Source: Escherichia coli (GTDB lineage Bacteria; Pseudomonadota; Gammaproteobacteria; Enterobacterales; Enterobacteriaceae). From it: 64,000 bases of DNA. The notes beneath the pieces are model-generated. The model did no database searches, was not told where the DNA came from, and was given only the letters and a program-made list of their open reading frames with translations. The stretch lies in NCBI GenBank assembly GCA_005400705.1, contig GCA_005400705.1_4079.1; one strand, 5' to 3'. Both the position numbers and the translations under genes were made by a program. Below, in pieces: positions 53,316 to 63,939 of the stretch. How positions within the stretch are numbered: position 1 is the first letter of the stretch; each line of letters opens with the position of its first letter.

Positions 53316-53903
53316 ATGGCATATAAAATAAGAGCAGACCTTAAGGCAATGCAACAAGTTACAGTTCAGGGTAAAAGTACTGGTCTTGGTGTATTAGGTA
53401 ATAATATGACTTATTACCCAACAAATTCAAATGGGGAATGTACATTCCCCTCTATTACCAAAGATGAAGTTAACTTTATTGTCAATGGATTACCACTTAC
53501 ACAATACGGAGAATTGTATGATGACGCTAGTCTAAATATTACTTCATCAGGCTATAGTCTTACATTTAATAGACAGATACCATCATTTATTGGTGGTTAT
53601 CTTTATAAATTTCCAGCAGTTTCTATTTTTGCTTCAACTGTTTCATCTGGAACACAAACACAATACGTATATGCAACGTTAGTTCTCGGTGAACCAATTT
53701 ATAAAATATCACCAACACAAATACAAGAATCTGAAATTATAATGTTTATTGGAACACTGACCGTTGGTACAAGTGGTATTACAAATATAAACATTAATAA
53801 AGTATCCAGATTTAGTACATATAGACCTAGTGTTACACAAAAAGGTTCTTCATTCCCAGTCAGTACTGGAAAACCATCAGAAACTGGTACAATTGGTTGG
53901 TAA
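53316..53903 (+). CDS. short paralog of tail-fibre-like family (195 aa)
   Basis: AAAGGA before ATG; C-terminus GSSFPVSTGKPSETGTIGW. Confidence 0.5.
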   Translation: MAYKIRADLKAMQQVTVQGKSTGLGVLGNNMTYYPTNSNGECTFPSITKDEVNFIVNGLPLTQYGELYDDASLNITSSGYSLTFNRQIPSFIGGYLYKFPAVSIFASTVSSGTQTQYVYATLVLGEPIYKISPTQIQESEIIMFIGTLTVGTSGITNININKVSRFSTYRPSVTQKGSSFPVSTGKPSETGTIGW

Positions 53904-53919
53904 ATTAAGGAAAAGAAAG

Positions 53920-56649
53920 ATGTCATCAAAACGAATTATAGGAAGTGCCGAGATCCTTGGGAACTTGGCAATTGGACAAAGGTACGCTATGCGTACTTTT
54001 AATGGAACCTCACCGAATGCCAATACTGGAATTGTTCAATATCCAATATATAAGCGTTCAGAAGTTCAAAGTATTTTAGATATGTTGCCTATATCACGTG
54101 TAGGAGAAATGGATTACTTACCATTAAACGTAAGTGGATCGTATGAAGGTGCTACACCTATGTCAAGTGACCAAGTAGTTCAGCCAACAATTATTGAAGA
54201 TGATGGAACCGCCGTTGTTCTGCGTAGCGGAACCAATGGTAGTACTAAAGGTTTTTATTATTCATTTATACGAGATCTCCGAAATATAACTATGATTTCA
54301 CAAGAAAGTGTTATTTCAACCAATTCAATGTATAAACCTTCAATTATGAGTAGTACTGAAAATATTAAGTATTTTATTGGCTCTAATGGTTATGAGATGC
54401 TTGGATGTTTAAGTACTGAAGATAATTATATTTTTACTATAACCAATGGCACATTTAACGAAATATCACATATTCATGCTAAAGTTCCAAGTACTTCTTT
54501 TGGTAATGATATGCCAATATATACACATATTGTTGGGACAAAGGTTTATATTTGGTGTAAAGATAAAAGTGTTTCTAATTTAGGATTAGCACTTTCAATT
54601 TATACAGTAGAGCTAAGTGATGTGAAAGCAAGCTCAATGGCATCATTAACAAAAGTTACTGGGTTATCAGGTCAAACTGTTCGAAACACAAGTTATTCTG
54701 CATCTAATAACATAAGAGTGTTCGATAAATTATATAGTGTTGGTACTAGCTCGGATTCATTATTCGAAGTTACATCACCAGTATCACGTGTAGAATTTTC
54801 AGACTATACAGACTTTAACATTCAAGCCAACGTTAGTCCTGATTTATCAAAAATACGTGTAACTTTATATCCAACACATCGAATGGTTACACCTTTGTAT
54901 ATTTCAACAGTTTATGGTACTGGAATAAGTTTTGTTTATAATATAAACTCAAAATCTATGTCACTAGATGGTAGTGCTCGTGCACCTGCAACTGTTTCAT
55001 ATAATAATGGATTTCAAGTTTCTAACCCATTTGAAATTAATATGGTCAACTTCACAGGGACAACTGCTGCTGGTGTATTAGGAAACGCAGGTGGTTTATG
55101 TCAAACTAAAGATGGTTTGGTATTTGCATCTAAATTTAGATGGAGTTCAACTGAATTTTATGGTCTACAACGATATAAGGTTAGTGGGACACCGTTTGAT
55201 TCATGGGTTGCCAGTACTAGAACCGCAAGTAACGTTATAAATGCAAACGTTTTACCAGTTTTTGGTAGTGCTGTTGGTGCAAACCTTTTAGGTGTACGTT
55301 TCATCGATAATAGAAAAATATTATTAGCATGTTCTGGTACGTATGATGATGTAACATATAATTATAATAATACTGTTTTTTCTGAAATAGGTTCACAACC
55401 AACATATCAATATAACTCAGTTCAAAATAATACTACATTAAATGGTTTTGCACCACAATCTAATCGTAAACAAATAGGCGATGATTTTACATACACTGCT
55501 ATGATTTCTCTTGTTGATACCGATGGTAGTGTTAGATGCTATGGAACATCATTCATTGAAGGTGTATATAAAACAAGTGGTGGATTATTAAACCCAGATA
55601 CTTTAGAATTTGATGAAACATATACAATAGAACCAACGGTATTAGAATCATTAAAACAAGATATTTTTGCTAATCTAGGAAACTCTGGCATTGTTGGTAC
55701 ACTATCTGGACAAATTGTATTATATTATGTACCTGATAATACTTTTTCTAAATCCATCGCAGTAGTTTCAGCATATAATCTTAACAATAACCAAGGTTAT
55801 GCAATCTATGCCGAAGTTGATGTTGTATTATCTGGAACTAACATAACTTCAGCTACATTGGTGAGTACTAGATATGAGACACTTAGTTCTGTTACAGGAA
55901 TTATTACTGAAGCATATATGAAACGTTGTACTGGTCTAACAGTTGCAAAATATTCAGGATTTGGTTACATTGGTGTTGATGCTGTTCATCAATTTTCACA
56001 ACCAGGTAATGCACAATTTAAGATGATGATAGCTAAAACAGTAGATGGTGTCATAACATCAAATCGTTTTTTATCATCTAGTTACATCCAACTTGGTGCA
56101 GCATATCAACATGGTGTTATTCCTGGTGTTGGTTTTGGATATTACAATTTTCAAGATTCTGACTATCAAACCAAATCTGTATTCAGCGTTTTTGGTACAA
56201 CATCTGCTGAAATGGATGGTTTAATTAGTGGAAATGGTAGCGTTAAAGAAAAGATTGTGGTAGTATCACAAGACGTTGCACAAGGATTCTCAGTGTACTT
56301 TACACGTGAAGTTCCGGTGTTTTTAGGTGGAATTTTCGACAGACTACCTATACAAAGTGTTGATTTAAGTACTGTAAAAAGTAACCCAGCTAATACTACG
56401 TTCTATTTGTATATACAAATGAACAGGAATACTAAGAAGGCGTCATATGTTATTAGTACTGAAACAATTGATGAATCTTTAACTAGCACTTACATTGGTA
56501 AGATAGTTACTGGAACTTCAGGAATAACTTCAATTGATACAGAAAAAGTAACTCGTTTTTTGACATATCGTCCAAGTACAACGAAACGTGGTTCAGCGAT
56601 ACCTGCCAGTACTGGTGTACCATCAGGTCCAGGTACACGTTGGAAATAA
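53920..56649 (+). CDS. tail-fibre-like / receptor-binding structural protein, paralog 2 (909 aa)
   Basis: AAGGA before ATG 53920 (ORF-track start 53830 overlaps upstream gene); DGTAVVLRSGTNGS and C-terminus GSAIPASTGVPSGPGT. Confidence 0.5.
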   Translation: MSSKRIIGSAEILGNLAIGQRYAMRTFNGTSPNANTGIVQYPIYKRSEVQSILDMLPISRVGEMDYLPLNVSGSYEGATPMSSDQVVQPTIIEDDGTAVVLRSGTNGSTKGFYYSFIRDLRNITMISQESVISTNSMYKPSIMSSTENIKYFIGSNGYEMLGCLSTEDNYIFTITNGTFNEISHIHAKVPSTSFGNDMPIYTHIVGTKVYIWCKDKSVSNLGLALSIYTVELSDVKASSMASLTKVTGLSGQTVRNTSYSASNNIRVFDKLYSVGTSSDSLFEVTSPVSRVEFSDYTDFNIQANVSPDLSKIRVTLYPTHRMVTPLYISTVYGTGISFVYNINSKSMSLDGSARAPATVSYNNGFQVSNPFEINMVNFTGTTAAGVLGNAGGLCQTKDGLVFASKFRWSSTEFYGLQRYKVSGTPFDSWVASTRTASNVINANVLPVFGSAVGANLLGVRFIDNRKILLACSGTYDDVTYNYNNTVFSEIGSQPTYQYNSVQNNTTLNGFAPQSNRKQIGDDFTYTAMISLVDTDGSVRCYGTSFIEGVYKTSGGLLNPDTLEFDETYTIEPTVLESLKQDIFANLGNSGIVGTLSGQIVLYYVPDNTFSKSIAVVSAYNLNNNQGYAIYAEVDVVLSGTNITSATLVSTRYETLSSVTGIITEAYMKRCTGLTVAKYSGFGYIGVDAVHQFSQPGNAQFKMMIAKTVDGVITSNRFLSSSYIQLGAAYQHGVIPGVGFGYYNFQDSDYQTKSVFSVFGTTSAEMDGLISGNGSVKEKIVVVSQDVAQGFSVYFTREVPVFLGGIFDRLPIQSVDLSTVKSNPANTTFYLYIQMNRNTKKASYVISTETIDESLTSTYIGKIVTGTSGITSIDTEKVTRFLTYRPSTTKRGSAIPASTGVPSGPGTRWK

Positions 56650-58319: not shown

Positions 58320-58721
58320 ATGACTACAGTTGATGATATCTATAGCACTATACGCAATATGAGTACAGATAGAAAAGTATTTGGCGATAAAGAAAAATCT
58401 AAGTGTTATGGTATTGATTCTTTTGATATAATTTCTTATGAGTACAATACAAGTGGAAATAGTTCACTGAATATCGTCTGTCCTCGTGACCCAGAAAATA
58501 ATTTTATGTATGTTGAAATTAATAATGATGGAATGTTTTTTACAAAAGTTTTCAAAGGTGGAATTAATTACGAACCTATTGAATGTATGAATGAAGAAAC
58601 TTTCTTTCAAGAAGATACAATTATCAATTTAGGTTTTAGTTTTGATGATTATAAAACATTAGAACATGACTTTAATCGTTATTATAATGGTTTCTTAAAG
58701 GAGTTAACAATTTATCTATGA
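58320..58721 (+). CDS. hypothetical protein (133 aa)
   Basis: ORF track. Confidence 0.5.
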   Translation: MTTVDDIYSTIRNMSTDRKVFGDKEKSKCYGIDSFDIISYEYNTSGNSSLNIVCPRDPENNFMYVEINNDGMFFTKVFKGGINYEPIECMNEETFFQEDTIINLGFSFDDYKTLEHDFNRYYNGFLKELTIYL

Positions 58722-59950
58722 ATAACCAATATATTGAACAAACAATAGTGAAACACTTGGCTGGGTCACAAGCCTACGGAACCAGTACACCTGAAAGTGA
58801 TACTGATTATCGTGGTATTTTTCTTGCTAATAAAGAATTTATTCTTACACCCTTCTATAAGGTCAAAGAGGTAGCTGATAAAAGCGAAGAAGATACTAAA
58901 TTCTATGAGTTGAATCAGTATTTAAAATTATACACTGAAGCTAACCCTAATATTCTTGAATCACTTTGGGTTGAACCTGAACACATTGTTGAAAGTACTG
59001 AAATTTATGACTATCTTCGTTCATTTAACCAAAAACTTCTTAGTTCCAAGATTGCATTTTCATATACTGGTTATGCATATAATCAGATTAAGCGTATGAC
59101 AAATCATCACGGTTGGATGGATAAAGAGCGTATTGCTGAAAAACGATTAAATGAGATTTTAGAAGAACACCCTGTCGATGAGGTTCTTGCGTGGATGTAT
59201 GATTCATTCCCACAGTATCTTGTTGAACGTTTAGATACATCCAACTTACATCCATTTAATGCTAAAAAGATTGATTTTGAAAAATATATGCGTGATACAT
59301 CATTGCAGTTAGTTTCGAAAAATCCATTAAAGCAATATCATTTCGTAAGATTAGTGCATAACTACACTACTGAAAAAATTCTTGATCGTGATTTCAATTT
59401 ATTGAATTTTAATAATGGTTATGAACTAATTCATTACGGAGAAAACATTTTTGCGATTGTTAAGAATCCTAATGAAAGCACTATTAACCATGATGGTTCA
59501 TTGCGTTATTTTTCAAAAGAACGTAGTACTGAAGAGTTGAAAACCAAACCAGAACTAATTGTAAAATTTAACGAAAAAGAATATCAGGAGAATAGTGAGA
59601 ATAGGAAAAGTTATCATAAATGGAAAGAAAATCGTAATGCCAAACGTGCTATTTTAGAATCACAACACGGATACGATTGTAAACATGCTATGCACACAAT
59701 CCGACTTTTGAATAGTGCAGAAGAAGCATTACAAAGTGGAATTATTCAAGTTAAACGACCAGATGCACAAATGTTGATGGATATTCGTAATGGTAAATGG
59801 AAGTATGAAGAAGTATTAGAATATTTCGATGATAAAGTACAATACATTCGTGATGTTCTATATAAGAAATCAGTACTTCCTAAAAAACCAAACATCAAGT
59901 TAGCATCAAAAATTATCATTGATATTAGAGAAATGCAATGGTATAAGTAA
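58718..59950 (+). CDS. Pol-beta-superfamily nucleotidyltransferase-domain protein (410 aa)
   Basis: N-terminal GSQAYGTSTPESDTDYRGIF = G[SG]x9-13Dh[DE]h nucleotidyltransferase signature; ATGA overlap. Confidence 0.55.
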   Translation: MNNQYIEQTIVKHLAGSQAYGTSTPESDTDYRGIFLANKEFILTPFYKVKEVADKSEEDTKFYELNQYLKLYTEANPNILESLWVEPEHIVESTEIYDYLRSFNQKLLSSKIAFSYTGYAYNQIKRMTNHHGWMDKERIAEKRLNEILEEHPVDEVLAWMYDSFPQYLVERLDTSNLHPFNAKKIDFEKYMRDTSLQLVSKNPLKQYHFVRLVHNYTTEKILDRDFNLLNFNNGYELIHYGENIFAIVKNPNESTINHDGSLRYFSKERSTEELKTKPELIVKFNEKEYQENSENRKSYHKWKENRNAKRAILESQHGYDCKHAMHTIRLLNSAEEALQSGIIQVKRPDAQMLMDIRNGKWKYEEVLEYFDDKVQYIRDVLYKKSVLPKKPNIKLASKIIIDIREMQWYK

Positions 59951-60027: not shown

Positions 60028-60156
60028 ATGGCACAACAAATTTTCACAGATATCCACACTACCGGAGTTATTAAATTTCAAAATAATTTTTCAGGTGCAA
60101 CTGGTGTAGACATTAAAAATGATGGTTTTAACATTGTCAGTACTCGGATCTATTGA
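60028..60156 (+). CDS. short ORF, possibly the N-terminal part of a frameshifted gene continuing at 60119
   Basis: AAGGA 7 nt upstream of ATG 60028; TATAAATT late-promoter-like site at 60005; ORF-track variant starts at 59956. Confidence 0.3.
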   Translation: MAQQIFTDIHTTGVIKFQNNFSGATGVDIKNDGFNIVSTRIY

Positions 60157-60655
60157 TGGTGAAGATAGTTCTCTTAGTGATTCTGTGATTGCATCATTCG
60201 GAACTAATAAAAACAGTTCTTTTATTATATCTGGATGGACTGGAATGACTGATTCTGAAAATAATGTTAAGATAAAAGCTAAATCTACTAACGAGAATCA
60301 TGAAACAGAATGGGTAACATTATATGATAGTGCAAGTAATAAGTTATATAATGTACTAAGTTCTAATAACATTTTAATTAATCCACTGTCGGGTAATGCT
60401 GTTTTTAATATTAATTTATCTGATAGAAATACTACTATTTCGATTGGTGCGGCTCCTACTGAAGTTTATTCAATTACCATCCTATTAACACAACAAACAG
60501 GTTCAAACCTAGTTAATTGGGGTTCTAATGTTAAATGGTCATATAACAGACCAGTTGTTCTTTCTTATGAAATTGGTGAAAAAGATATTATTTCATTAGA
60601 AACATATGATAAAGGAGTTACATGGTACGGTGCATTAATTAGAGCAGGAGTATGA
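60119..60655 (+). CDS. probable virion structural protein (Ser/Asn/Thr-rich)
   Basis: ORF track; start overlaps upstream ORF by 38 nt in a different frame. Confidence 0.45.
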   Translation: MMVLTLSVLGSIDGEDSSLSDSVIASFGTNKNSSFIISGWTGMTDSENNVKIKAKSTNENHETEWVTLYDSASNKLYNVLSSNNILINPLSGNAVFNINLSDRNTTISIGAAPTEVYSITILLTQQTGSNLVNWGSNVKWSYNRPVVLSYEIGEKDIISLETYDKGVTWYGALIRAGV

Positions 60656-60656
60656 T

Positions 60657-63446
60657 ATGTTAAACAATAATATTGATAATATTGTACAACTTCTTTATGG
60701 GCATCACAAATTTATTGAAAGAAATACTGGTGATACAATAGACCCAACAGTACAACATTATGTGGTGAACAATCAGGGTGTTTTGGCGAACAACCGTCAT
60801 TTTATTAACTATTCTGCAATGGAAGGTCAACCAAACGGTGACGGAACAACAGAAGGTCAAAGTCTATTAATTTTAGGATACATTTATGCGTATCTGGCAA
60901 CAAATGATCCAATGTTTTTAGATAAGGCAAAGTGGTATTGGGACGCATATCATCAGTACTTTTATGCTGGACGTGAATTACCAGATCCACCTACACCACT
61001 ACAATGTAACTGGATAGTTAATGCCAAAGAACCTATATTGGCTAACTGGCCTTTAGCTGATGATGGCTGGCCCACACATGGTGGTTTCAAGGGTGTAGAA
61101 TTTACATTTACAAATGGACAATGTAAAATACCACATGGTGCACCTTATTATGGTCAGTTCTTGGATAAAGTAACATTTGCATTCAAAGGTGCTTTAGCAT
61201 GGAACCAAATAAATGCGTCAGTAAAAGCATTATTACCAGATGGTAGTGTTGATTGGGATACACCAGGTGAACAATATGATGTTGACTGGATTATCGATTT
61301 CATGGGTAGAAAAATCGACTGGGATGGTAATATTTTAGCAGAAGGTTTTGACGAATCTGAAAAAGGAACTGTTCAATTAAAGAATACAACAATTAATGGT
61401 GTATATAAATTAAATTTTGCAAATCGTCAACCAGTAGAATATGGTGGTGTGATAATTCAACGAAATGAAATGCAACACAACCGCCCTCTTCATGTTCCAA
61501 TTGATTTGGAATTTGCTGATAACGCATCAGATGCAGAATTATGGTTTAGTGATGCTTCTTATTTGTTATATAAAATAACAAAAGAAAGAAAACATTATTT
61601 GGGTTGGAAATGTTCACTACTAACGTGTTATGCTTATGGTGATATTGACTCCAGAGATAAATTTTTCAGACAAAGTACAATTGTAACCACACCATTCACT
61701 GATGGTATTTCCTATGAATATTTTTATCCTAGTGATGCTATTGCTAAGTTTGGTAGAAATTCTCTAGGATATATTACTATCAGGCAAGACCAAAGTGCAC
61801 AAAGTACTATGGAACAACAAGCTATTTGGTTCAGGGTCAATGCTGATTCTAAATTACTTGTAGACTATGGTGGTGTATGTGATGATGGTAAGCCGTTATC
61901 ATTTAAACCAGTACTGGAATTGTCAAAAACAAAAAATGACCATGATGTTGTTCGTTATCGTTGTGGCTTACCGGAAAGTAAAGACCAAAATATCACACAT
62001 TCATTAACACCTTTAAGTGCATTTGTTAGAGAAAAGAAAGCAGATGGTTCCCCTTATATAATTGCTGATAGTAGAATTGTTGTTCCTTATGGTGCAGCTA
62101 CATCCGAAATGATATATAGTACTGATATATTAGTTACACGCCGAGATACCATTAATCAGTTAGTTTGTGGTGAAGATGATGGTGCTGTTATTGGATTTTG
62201 GCTATTAGCAACAAATAAGTCTGAAGTTAAATCTTTTACATATCGTTCATATGAAGATGATTACAATATAAGAATTGTAGATGATAATGGTTGGAGATGG
62301 TGGTGGATGATTCCTGCAACACACGGGGAATGGACTACAATCACACTAAGTTCCGATACATTACGTTTATCTGGGTATCAGCCAAATCATCCAAGTTCTG
62401 ACCCAAGACCAGATGCACCAGTTTATAGTGAGCTAGAAGATATTACTATTTTACCTGATACAACCCCAGTAGATGGTGTTGCTGCAATAATTGATTGGTA
62501 TTGTATTAATGACATTCCAGAATTATATACGGATGCTGATGGTGATGACTATACTATGACATTTTCAATAACAATTGCAGGTGAATCACCATATACTGCA
62601 CAGTTAGGGGATTGTGTAATCAAAGATTATTTGTTAAACTCATTGCATTACACACCAGGAACAATACCATTTTCTAACATCACTGACCCGTATGCGAACC
62701 AGTATTCAGGATGGCGTGGTTTACCGTATCCAGGTTATCAATATCCTGTGATATATTGTTTTAAAGACCAGCCAGTAGATAACACACGCTTAGGAAACAT
62801 GTTAAGCTTTATGAAAGATTCCCAAACATGGTTTACTCAACAATTCGGTACTGTTGGTCCGTGTGCACAAGCATATGTTTGGAACCGCTGGGATAACTTA
62901 AAGTATGGTGAACCAGATACATTTACTATGCTACATTGGGGTGATCAAGCATGGAGTGGGTATGAACCACGTGCGTTCTTTGGGGCTGCCAGAGCATGGC
63001 AAGAACTCGCAGAGAGAGGAATTGAACCACCAGCAGATCTTGTTGAATTTTGTGAGAATTGGATTCACTTTTTAATTCAATTTCAAAAAGATAATGATGG
63101 TCGTTCACCAACAATCTTCAATAAAGATGGCACAGTTGAAGGTCCAGATTGGGACTTTACGGGTCATATGTGTGGGTTGTGGTTAGCTGGGGCTTGTGCT
63201 GCTGGGTTGGCTGGATGTAAAATAGAAGGTCTAACAACACTCGCTGATAACTTAGTTCTCGAACTTCAAAAGAATTATGTTATTGTAAATCCAGGTTCAC
63301 CAATGAATGGTTCATGGAGTCCAGCAGTTAGAGAAGGTACTGATAATGGTATGTTTTTTGGTTTCTGGGCAGGTGAGAATATGCGTGGATTGGGATTATA
63401 CTCAATGTACCGCTTAAACACACCAAATCGTTTCCGTGATTTATAA
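60657..63446 (+). CDS. large Trp-rich protein (929 aa); possible carbohydrate-active or tail-associated protein
   Basis: GCAGGAG before ATG; C-terminal third is Trp/Gly/aromatic-rich in a way reminiscent of glycoside-hydrolase toroid domains; weak inference. Confidence 0.5.
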   Translation: MLNNNIDNIVQLLYGHHKFIERNTGDTIDPTVQHYVVNNQGVLANNRHFINYSAMEGQPNGDGTTEGQSLLILGYIYAYLATNDPMFLDKAKWYWDAYHQYFYAGRELPDPPTPLQCNWIVNAKEPILANWPLADDGWPTHGGFKGVEFTFTNGQCKIPHGAPYYGQFLDKVTFAFKGALAWNQINASVKALLPDGSVDWDTPGEQYDVDWIIDFMGRKIDWDGNILAEGFDESEKGTVQLKNTTINGVYKLNFANRQPVEYGGVIIQRNEMQHNRPLHVPIDLEFADNASDAELWFSDASYLLYKITKERKHYLGWKCSLLTCYAYGDIDSRDKFFRQSTIVTTPFTDGISYEYFYPSDAIAKFGRNSLGYITIRQDQSAQSTMEQQAIWFRVNADSKLLVDYGGVCDDGKPLSFKPVLELSKTKNDHDVVRYRCGLPESKDQNITHSLTPLSAFVREKKADGSPYIIADSRIVVPYGAATSEMIYSTDILVTRRDTINQLVCGEDDGAVIGFWLLATNKSEVKSFTYRSYEDDYNIRIVDDNGWRWWWMIPATHGEWTTITLSSDTLRLSGYQPNHPSSDPRPDAPVYSELEDITILPDTTPVDGVAAIIDWYCINDIPELYTDADGDDYTMTFSITIAGESPYTAQLGDCVIKDYLLNSLHYTPGTIPFSNITDPYANQYSGWRGLPYPGYQYPVIYCFKDQPVDNTRLGNMLSFMKDSQTWFTQQFGTVGPCAQAYVWNRWDNLKYGEPDTFTMLHWGDQAWSGYEPRAFFGAARAWQELAERGIEPPADLVEFCENWIHFLIQFQKDNDGRSPTIFNKDGTVEGPDWDFTGHMCGLWLAGACAAGLAGCKIEGLTTLADNLVLELQKNYVIVNPGSPMNGSWSPAVREGTDNGMFFGFWAGENMRGLGLYSMYRLNTPNRFRDL

Positions 63447-63477
63447 CTTGACATAGAAAAAGTAATTATGTATAATT

Positions 63478-63507
63478 AGAGAACTTCATATGGAGTTCTC
63501 TTTTTTA
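63478..63507 (+). terminator. rho-independent terminator
   Basis: stem AGAGAACT...AGTTCTCT followed by TTTTTT. Confidence 0.75.
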
Positions 63508-63519
63508 TAAGGTGATAAA

Positions 63520-63939
63520 ATGTTAAATGAACGTATTAAAAATGCACTACATGTATTGAACCAAGAAGTTAATTCTATCGATAAAAGTACTGACCGTTAT
63601 AAAGTAATGCATGAAATCAAACAAGAATTGGAATCTATTAATAAGGGAGAATGGTGGTATCTTCAGCCCGAATATCAAACTCGTGAATTAAACGATGTTG
63701 AAAAAGAAATTGTCAAATTCATCACTACTCGTTACTGTGATACATCAGAGAATGATGTATCAGCGAACTTCAATCTTACTAAATTGGAAGTAGAAGAAAA
63801 ATTCAATTTTGATTGGCTTGATTGGCTTGAAATGGTGATGGAACTAGAAGAAAAATTCAATGTTGAAGTTGATGAAAAGTTCGAGAATAATGAAACTAAG
63901 CTGTATGAACTAGCAGAACATATTCAAAACATGTTGTAA
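63520..63939 (+). CDS. hypothetical acidic protein (139 aa)
   Basis: ORF track; contains near-duplicated EEKFNFDW / EEKFNVEVDEKFE segments. Confidence 0.5.
   Translation: MLNERIKNALHVLNQEVNSIDKSTDRYKVMHEIKQELESINKGEWWYLQPEYQTRELNDVEKEIVKFITTRYCDTSENDVSANFNLTKLEVEEKFNFDWLDWLEMVMELEEKFNVEVDEKFENNETKLYELAEHIQNML

Follow-up and report, generated by a model that had tools for sequence, protein, structure and literature searches.

Most of the known phage proteins that degrade glycans are hypervariable beta-helix tailspikes, which define a narrow host range. The family considered here, represented by gp509 of the jumbo coliphage 121Q, differs from such typical tailspikes in its alpha-barrel fold, its conservation across hosts and the absence of a Pfam or NCBIfam model. 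Several members have appeared in earlier work: virion proteomics of rV5 detected both gp42 and its partner gp43 (PMC3606486), the 105-kDa gp509 ortholog of phAPEC6, gp314c, was found in virions by mass spectrometry with 8 unique peptides and 13% coverage (PMC7247149), and phi92 Gp141 was labelled 'Glycosidase' in a review table citing Schwarzer 2012 (PMC5380687), which is the sole functional label found. The gp509 family is therefore an already catalogued tail-protein family, one ortholog of which has long been listed as a predicted glycosidase, and not a new kind of protein. In the present analysis, the gp509 gene was examined in a 64,000-nucleotide stretch of DNA from an Escherichia coli assembly (GCA_005400705.1, contig GCA_005400705.1_4079.1; hereafter the window), which is 98-99% identical at the DNA level to the Asteriusvirus jumbo coliphages 121Q, PBECO4, phAPEC6 and G17.

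60657..63446, + strand: gp509, ortholog of phAPEC6 gp314c, a 929-aa virion protein; modelled as a six-hairpin barrel with insertions resembling carbohydrate-binding modules (CBMs)

Taken together, the evidence suggests that gp509 is rather probably an adaptor-docked, virion-borne glycan hydrolase of the tail, although its catalysis, the identity of its catalytic residues, its site on the 121Q virion and its substrate are features that we infer. The first-pass annotation of the window had proposed a virion-associated polysaccharide depolymerase or a baseplate component. That idea is supported at the level at which it could be examined, since a carbohydrate-active fold was predicted and the protein is not absent from virions, both phAPEC6 gp314c and rV5 gp42 having been recovered in published virion mass spectrometry.

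The open reading frame (ORF) starts with an ATG at 60657 and its stop codon ends at 63446 on the + strand, exactly where it had been placed before, and it corresponds to 121Q gp509, annotated as 'tail protein', with a 99.9% identical ortholog in PBECO4. An AGGAG Shine-Dalgarno sequence, read from the sequence, lies at 60646-60650, 6 nt 5' of the ATG, and the stop codon of the preceding gene gp508 (60653-60655) falls between the two. Both peptides quoted in the first-pass annotation were recovered in the translation, WFTQQFGTVGPCAQAYVWNRWD at residue 725, GLWLAGACAAGLAG at residue 840, and its description of the protein as Trp-, Tyr- and Gly-rich holds for two of the three residues. With the remaining long ORFs on the + strand of the window as background, Trp reached 3.34% versus 1.27% (31 observed, 11.8 expected; p = 2e-6), Gly 8.2% versus 5.7% (p = 0.0014) and Pro 5.7% versus 3.0% (p = 1e-5), while Tyr was not enriched (5.60% versus 5.58%; p = 0.51). 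The enrichment of Trp is compatible with glycan binding and is no evidence for it.

Full-length gp509 matched phrog_2871 ('tail protein') with hmmscan (E = 0, 1505 bits, residues 2-926), and tblastn counted full-length homologs in 531 phage records, with 520 records covering at least 80% of the query. Identity to gp509 was ~57% for proteins of phi92-like phages, 41-48% for those of Klebsiella, Pseudomonas, Erwinia and Salmonella phages (including SPN3US-like jumbo phages), ~33% for those of Vibrio phages and ~31% for those of rV5-like phages. An exhaustive hidden Markov model (HMM) search of 1.84 billion cluster representatives placed the family at 383 clusters, and prophage copies occur in Enterobacter, E. 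coli, Pseudomonas, Zymomonas and Gluconobacter. Some orthologs carry the annotation 'tail formation protein (GpI)', which was probably transferred from relatives in which the module is fused to P2 gpI (P0068; compare JNE01, L016 1116-1719); the 121Q-type protein has no gpI domain. With regard to other literature, the Ghequire tailocin paper contains nothing relevant to gp509, and the Sharanji paper does not discuss it.

The fold of gp509 was modelled with AlphaFold2 using 39 homologs, which yielded a confident model (predicted local distance difference test, pLDDT, 86.2; predicted template modelling score, pTM, 0.81) containing a twelve-helix (alpha/alpha)6 six-hairpin barrel, with a GH8-type glycoside hydrolase (GH) as the best structural match. 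The alpha/alpha toroid that had been suspected in the C-terminal third is thus real, but in the model it is not confined to that third: its helices are drawn from three segments (residues 6-102, 291-327 and 709-920), between which lie two beta-rich insertions (~103-290 and ~328-708). The layout is given below, with conservation counted among 25 aligned full-length homologs reaching down to 20% identity.

60657..60962, + strand: barrel segment A, residues 1-102; predicted helices 6-22, 65-82 and 85-102
60852-60854, + strand: codon of E66, the candidate general acid, in the TTEGQS motif of segment A (E66 in 22/25 and Q68 in 24/25 homologs)
60963..61526, + strand: insertion 1, residues 103-290, a beta-rich loop from an outer to an inner barrel helix (strands 120-274)
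61527..61637, + strand: barrel segment B, residues 291-327; helices 291-308 and 311-327
61530-61532, + strand: codon of D292, a candidate catalytic or -1-subsite residue, in NASDAELW (residues 289-296), which straddles the start of segment B (D292 in 23/25 and W296 in 20/25 homologs)
61638..62780, + strand: insertion 2, residues 328-708, several beta-sandwich domains
62781..63443, + strand: barrel segment C, residues 709-929; helices 709-730, 769-787, 793-812, 836-851, 859-872 and 902-920

In the model the two insertions are expanded into CBM-like beta-jelly-roll domains. A beta-sandwich jelly-roll fold of ~130 residues, as in carbohydrate-binding modules of type B, was recognized, and the model of residues 103-708, which spans both, matches CBMs, the output not specifying which sub-domain is responsible. 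Insertion 1 ends in a conserved HNRP loop, in which P277 is invariant (25/25), and the conserved loops of insertion 2 are TDGISY (348-353), IPFSN (670-674) and WxGxPYPGYQxP (686-697). The conserved residues of segment C are Q723, R772, H837 and E907 (codon 63375-63377). Judged from the order of helices, each insertion bridges an outer helix and the inner helix that follows it. Loops of this kind lie on the active-site face of six-hairpin enzymes, and by this topology the insertions would sit on that face in gp509. As modelled, gp509 is a glycosidase-type barrel with CBM-like domains grown from its loops; the parallel beta-helix catalytic domain of classical trimeric tailspike depolymerases is not present in the model.

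Two sequence motifs relate the barrel to GH8. The gp509 stretch GTTEGQSLL...ATND parallels TTSEGQSYGMF...AAND of E. coli BcsZ, a bona fide GH8 enzyme, in which the Glu of this motif is the residue mutated in PDB 3qxq, and the gp509 stretch DNASDAELWF parallels SNSASDGDVWM of BcsZ; both motifs occur in the same order in the two proteins. In a post hoc test, none of 20,000 shuffles of gp509 contained both motifs in order. Residues T65-E66-G67-Q68 agree with the GH8 general-acid motif [ST]-E-G-Q, an agreement at the level of the motif only. The GH8 signature in PROSITE is A-[ST]-D-[AG]-D; where BcsZ has ASDGD, gp509 has A-S-D-A-E-L-W, whose first Asp is kept in 23/25 homologs and whose second acidic position is Glu (16/25) instead of Asp. 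GH8 membership itself was examined and rejected, the likeness being one of motifs: Pfam PF01270 (GH8) matched neither the full protein (E up to 10) nor any of 14 barrel-only constructs, prepared from gp509-family sequences by removing the insertions (alignment A2), and hhalign gave probabilities of 0.2% against BcsZ alone and about 1% against a GH8 profile, neither of which is significant.

Other families were approached with the same barrel-only constructs. Pfam returned scattered weak matches only, such as GH127 in 2 of the 14 constructs and GH47 at E = 0.07. When the barrel-only profile was searched against PDB sequences with hmmsearch, GH76 enzymes were matched (4v1r at E = 6.6e-5, 4c1s at 3.9e-4 and CtGH76 at 0.035-0.049), and HMMER aligned segment B to the 'ATDDTGWW' region of CtGH76. 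The catalytic Asp-Asp pair of GH76 is not found in gp509, in which D292-A293 is aligned with it and E294 follows one residue on (D-A-E). By fold, gp509 is a member of the six-hairpin glycosidase superfamily with GH8-like catalytic motifs, and profile searches do not assign it to GH8, GH76 or any other profile-defined family.

These comparisons bear on an explanation in which the fold is the same and the chemistry is different, namely an AGE-type epimerase or isomerase, a GH88/GH105-like unsaturated-uronyl hydrolase that trims the products of lyase tailspikes, or a retaining GH76-like mannanase. We regard this as unlikely: the GH76 Asp-Asp reads D-A-E in gp509, rV5 gp42 has Trp in place of H837, a position kept less strictly than the carboxylates, structure comparison gives a GH8-type enzyme as the best match, and an epimerase would have no evident use on a virion.

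Polar residues that could form an active site are strongly conserved among the 25 homologs: D542, Q695 and Q723 are invariant, Q68 is found in 24, D292 in 23, E66 and R772 in 22 each, and E907 in 21, with Asp in 2 more. The helices starting at 65 and 902 contain E66 and E907, respectively, in their first turn, and D292 is one residue past the helix start at 291. Strict conservation of carboxylates at the N-termini of inner helices is typical of active six-hairpin enzymes (clans GH-L, GH-M and GH-O). In the divergent metagenomic members P0167 and P0172, E66, D292, R772, E907, D746 and H837 have all been replaced and the architecture has been kept, which implies that the scaffold can persist without the candidate site. 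Such a joint loss would be expected of residues that form a single functional site, and these two proteins are probably catalytically dead variants that retain the scaffold.

The same counts speak to the possibility that gp509 cleaves no bond at all, and is instead a non-catalytic glycan-binding adhesin, used for reversible adsorption to a conserved surface sugar, or a structural decoration of the tail. This appears possible and rather doubtful, as E66 (22/25), D292 (23/25) and E907 (21/25 plus 2 Asp) are kept even in divergent homologs, and the conserved carboxylates lie within GH8-like catalytic motifs in a pattern that seems characteristic of active six-hairpin enzymes.

If gp509 is indeed a hydrolase, its jelly-roll domains might hold a glycan chain of the host surface over the central pocket of the barrel, where E66 (TTEGQS), D292 (NASDAELW) and E907, helped by Q68, Q695, Q723 and R772, would cleave the glycosidic bond. 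The most likely chemistry would be GH8-like and inverting, with E66 as the general acid. The enzyme would not be bound to the virion by itself and would be carried by the product of the upstream genes gp507 and gp508, an adaptor whose conserved C-terminal domain would dock the enzyme and whose N-terminus would anchor it to the particle.

The idea of a docking adaptor comes from genomic context. In seven contexts examined, the gene directly upstream of the gp509-family gene encodes a small protein with the same type of C-terminal domain, here called the dock domain:

121Q: gp508
phi92: gp140
rV5: gp43
Salmonella phage SE4: gp52
lambda-like siphovirus KLB28: MVRI021
ECO319P1: gene 00097
Enterobacter prophage: a 560-aa protein

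These partners share a C-terminal domain of ~100 residues, over which PHROGs 9017, 7760, 32568 and 27998 ('tail fiber protein') match one another; gp508 itself matched PHROG 32568 at E = 4e-119 and matched 7760, 9017 and 27998 over its C-terminal ~100 aa. The N-termini of the partners vary. In rV5 gp43 it is a TSP1/Gp66 tailspike-type domain, PF18668 (Tail_spike_N), which Kropinski and colleagues likened to the N-terminus of the P22 tailspike (PMC3606486), in KLB28 a lambda-Stf-type phage_tail_N domain, and in the Enterobacter prophage a major-tail-protein domain. In the last case (L011 8319-13348), the enzyme gene is flanked by two major-tail-protein paralogs, one of 560 aa, in which a tube-protein N-terminus is followed by the dock domain, and the other a plain tube protein of 156 aa, which suggests that the enzyme of this prophage is displayed on a variant of the tail-tube protein.

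Elsewhere the enzyme module is joined to tail proteins directly. It was found fused to gpI, the baseplate protein of P2, with the genes arranged as V-W-J-I, to a J-like protein and, in one distant member, to a Tal-type tail-tip protein downstream of Dit. It also follows weak, below-threshold Pfam matches to DUF7941 in P0141 and P0192, and precedes N4 gp65-type domains in P0120 and P0144. A preprint on phage Goslar assigns DUF7941 to peripheral baseplate filaments bearing glycoside hydrolase domains, and proposes that proteins of this kind are located there and take part in host recognition (bioRxiv 10.64898/2026.04.21.720040). The simplest reading of these arrangements is a portable cassette, in which a conserved dock domain would hold the enzyme and a swappable anchor would set its place on the particle.

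The placement of the module also bears on a further explanation, in which gp509 would be a virion-associated lysin that degrades peptidoglycan during penetration. This would explain conservation across all hosts. Peptidoglycan is the one glycan common to every host of the family, its backbone is beta-1,4-linked, the type of linkage cut by GH8-like enzymes, and the fusion to a Tal-type protein in one distant member places the module where lysins occur. However, in most phages the protein would be carried externally, by an adaptor resembling tail fibres or tailspikes, or at the wedge periphery, and not on the tube or needle, and the six-hairpin barrel fold is not known from any peptidoglycan hydrolase. 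Moreover, the virions of 121Q-type phages contain lysozyme-type proteins of their own, for example gp241 of phAPEC6 (PMC7247149). A lysin is considered very improbable.

For phi92, a cryo-electron microscopy paper of 2026 left fibre II unassigned, having screened only fibre-shaped proteins, gp140 included, with no mention of gp141. The gp140-gp141 pair (L006 14239-17588) is a candidate for the unassigned peripheral density in phi92.

A link between this region and recognition of enterobacterial common antigen (ECA) was also considered. The BASEL paper connected ECA recognition with a conserved tail fibre of Vequintavirinae, a homolog of N4 gp64 that contains a sugar-deacetylase domain. The position of this fibre had suggested rV5 gp42. 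Identity of this fibre with the rV5 gp42/gp509 family was rejected, comparisons of N4 gp64 with the family by hhalign and BLASTP both being null. N4 gp64 matches phi92 gp142 instead, the product of the gene adjoining gp141 (tblastn 2e-31), and therefore the ECA link does not transfer to gp509. No homolog of N4 gp64 was found in the window, and N4 gp65 is not homologous to the gp509 family.

In the window, the adaptor gene is read in two frames:

60028..60156, + strand: gp507, a 42-aa ORF and putative virion anchor; by alignment to L013 and L014 it equals the first 41 residues of their single-ORF adaptor
60119..60655, + strand: gp508, adaptor linker and C-terminal dock domain, read in frame 2
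60142..60156, + strand: frame junction ACT CGG ATC TAT TGA, with CGG at 60145-60147 and the stop at 60154-60156; candidate +1 frameshift site

In the metagenomic relatives L013 and L014, whose large proteins are 75-80% identical, the adaptor is a single ORF of 207-209 aa, of which gp507 represents residues 1-41 and gp508, from G10 in the +1 frame, the remainder. Compared with these relatives, a single nucleotide is added in the window, at AGT ACT C GGA TCT. The split is not a sequencing error, because several observations agree: across 641 nt, none of 19 genome records with identities as low as 93.4% differs in length; five genomes have an identical junction; the pattern of substitutions, 5/1/34 by codon position in gp508 relative to G17 and, for the three in gp507 among relatives, all synonymous in its own frame, indicates purifying selection on the arrangement; and the ACT CGG ATC junction, followed by a stop two codons on, recurs in JNE01, which is ~75% identical in nucleotides. 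Dual-frame coding by itself could explain the nucleotide conservation.

The codon CGG is nearly unused in the window: it occurs once among the 533 Arg codons of ORFs with 150 aa or more, and 5 times among all 19,440 codons of ORFs with 100 aa or more. Skipping the C after S-T and reading on at GGA gives FNIVST-GSIDGEDSSLSDS, which aligns without gaps to FNISST-GTITGTDSFLSDS of L013; the predicted trans-frame junction peptide is NDGFNIVSTGSIDGEDSSLSDSVIASFGTNK, and its zero-frame counterpart is NDGFNIVSTR. No Shine-Dalgarno sequence was seen by eye before the internal ATGs, and no Shine-Dalgarno-like stimulator was found at the frameshift junction. A programmed +1 frameshift at a hungry CGG codon is, from these sequence features, a serious candidate, and a split gene with internal initiation is a possible alternative. 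In phAPEC6, the counterpart of gp507, gp315c, was detected in virions with 69% coverage (PMC7247149), which by calculation corresponds to its first two tryptic peptides. As gp508 is not annotated in phAPEC6, the published mass spectrometry search could not have found it.

Several points weigh against the view of gp509 as a glycan hydrolase carried by an adaptor. Full-length gp509 has no match in Pfam (E up to 10), NCBIfam or, by phmmer sequence search, PDB, and no enzymatic activity is on record for any member of the family. The hhalign comparison with a 16-sequence GH8 profile gave a probability of 1.0% (E = 0.052) over 21 columns, the power of this comparison being limited by the 58-84% identity within the profile, and the GH76 alignments are short stretches made up largely of the generic hairpin repeat Y-x-A-T-x-D-x-x-Y-L. 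The BcsZ catalytic base is the Asp of Y-D-A-I-R, the residue mutated in PDB 7f82; no counterpart of this motif was recognized in gp509, where E907 and D746 are candidates only. That E66, D292 and E907 share a central pocket is suggested by topology only, and the contact between dock domain and enzyme by gene adjacency and domain conservation. Finally, enzymes that degrade receptors are not usually conserved so strongly from host to host.

The last point has a bearing on the substrate as well. As the family is 43-57% identical across phages of very different Proteobacteria, the target of gp509 is more likely to be a conserved, common glycan than a strain-specific capsule or O-antigen. A more encompassing hypothesis can be put forward tentatively, and as a whole it is more doubtful than probable: gp509 may represent an unclassified GH family with GH8-like motifs and CBMs inserted into the barrel, travelling as a portable dock-plus-enzyme cassette between prophages, jumbo phages and tails of the myo-, sipho- and podovirus types, and acting on a glycan shared by many Proteobacteria; in 121Q-type phages a programmed +1 frameshift at the hungry CGG codon would set how much functional adaptor is made, and hence the enzyme load per virion, and the gp140-gp141 pair might fill the peripheral density of phi92.

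The 121Q-type cassette is separate from the main module of tail and baseplate genes, its neighbours being nucleotidyltransferase, acyl-carrier-protein-like and spanin genes. On one side, 58718-59950 encodes an RlaP-family nucleotidyltransferase (Pfam E = 6e-16), and on the other, 63520-63939 encodes a 139-aa protein with weak similarity to acyl carrier proteins (PHROG 5934 at 8e-7; Pfam below cutoff). Both flanks being non-structural genes, the cassette lies outside the main morphogenesis module. Its 3' side carries the following feature:

63478..63501, + strand: intrinsic-terminator-like hairpin, a 10-bp stem followed by a T-run, 32 nt 3' of the gp509 stop

This hairpin is likely to be the end of the transcription unit of the tail-protein cassette. 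Directly 3' of the gp509 stop, within 63448-63501, there is also a perfect sigma-70 consensus (TTGACA, 17 nt, TATAAT; 12/12 matches), which is followed at once by the hairpin, with the acyl-carrier-protein-like gene beyond at 63520.

Further upstream, the ORF at 53830-56649 (+ strand; 939 aa) is 121Q gp501, assigned to PHROG 3573 and without a Pfam or NCBIfam match. Its position and size suggest that its counterpart in phAPEC6 is gp323c (98.6 kDa), which was found in virions with 4 peptides, and gp501 would be a second large uncharacterized structural protein, 4 kb upstream of gp509. Between 56717 and 58721 (+ strand) lie four small ORFs in series (188, 173, 169 and 133 aa), the first three of which look paralogous from their translations, sharing D-x-x-R-K/R-x-L/I-I/L-x-x-K-Y-x-L-S-K in their N-terminal halves.

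As a find, gp509 is sensible rather than surprising, with the dock cassette and the split adaptor gene adding moderate interest. If active, the proteins would constitute a new CAZy-type family and reveal an adsorption step that is conserved, and might provide a broad-spectrum enzyme against biofilms or envelope glycans. The dock domain would offer an existing handle by which cargo could be placed on different virions, and the two-frame adaptor, if confirmed, would join the small number of +1 frameshifts described in phage structural genes.

Among known systems, the closest are phi92 gp141, rV5 gp42 and PVP-SE1 gp050 (PHROG 2871), which share full-length homology with gp509, a dock-domain gene upstream and, in rV5, presence in the virion. 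Unlike in its phi92 and rV5 kin, the 121Q-type pair lies outside the main tail module and its adaptor gene is in two frames. With regard to the enzyme, GH8 (clan GH-M), which includes BcsZ, CelA of C. thermocellum and PssZ of Listeria, consists of inverting endo-beta-1,4-glycanases, whereas gp509 has ~570 residues of beta domains inserted in two loops; GH76 enzymes are retaining alpha-1,6-mannanases, and gp509 has D-A-E where they have the catalytic Asp-Asp. In Chimallivirus, Goslar gp86, gp92 and gp161 combine DUF7941 with carbohydrate-binding and glycoside hydrolase domains; in P0141 and P0192 a weak, sub-threshold DUF7941 match at the N-terminus is followed by the gp509-type module, whereas 121Q-type phages use a dock-domain adaptor. 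In placing a glycan-targeting enzyme on a separate or modular anchor, the gp509 system resembles TSP1-4 of CBA120, gp63.1 and gp66 of G7C, and the adaptor and endosialidase of K1-5 and K1E; it differs from them in that the enzyme is a six-hairpin barrel instead of a trimeric beta-helix, the conserved element for docking lies at the C-terminus of a small partner protein, and the enzyme is conserved across hosts instead of being hypervariable.

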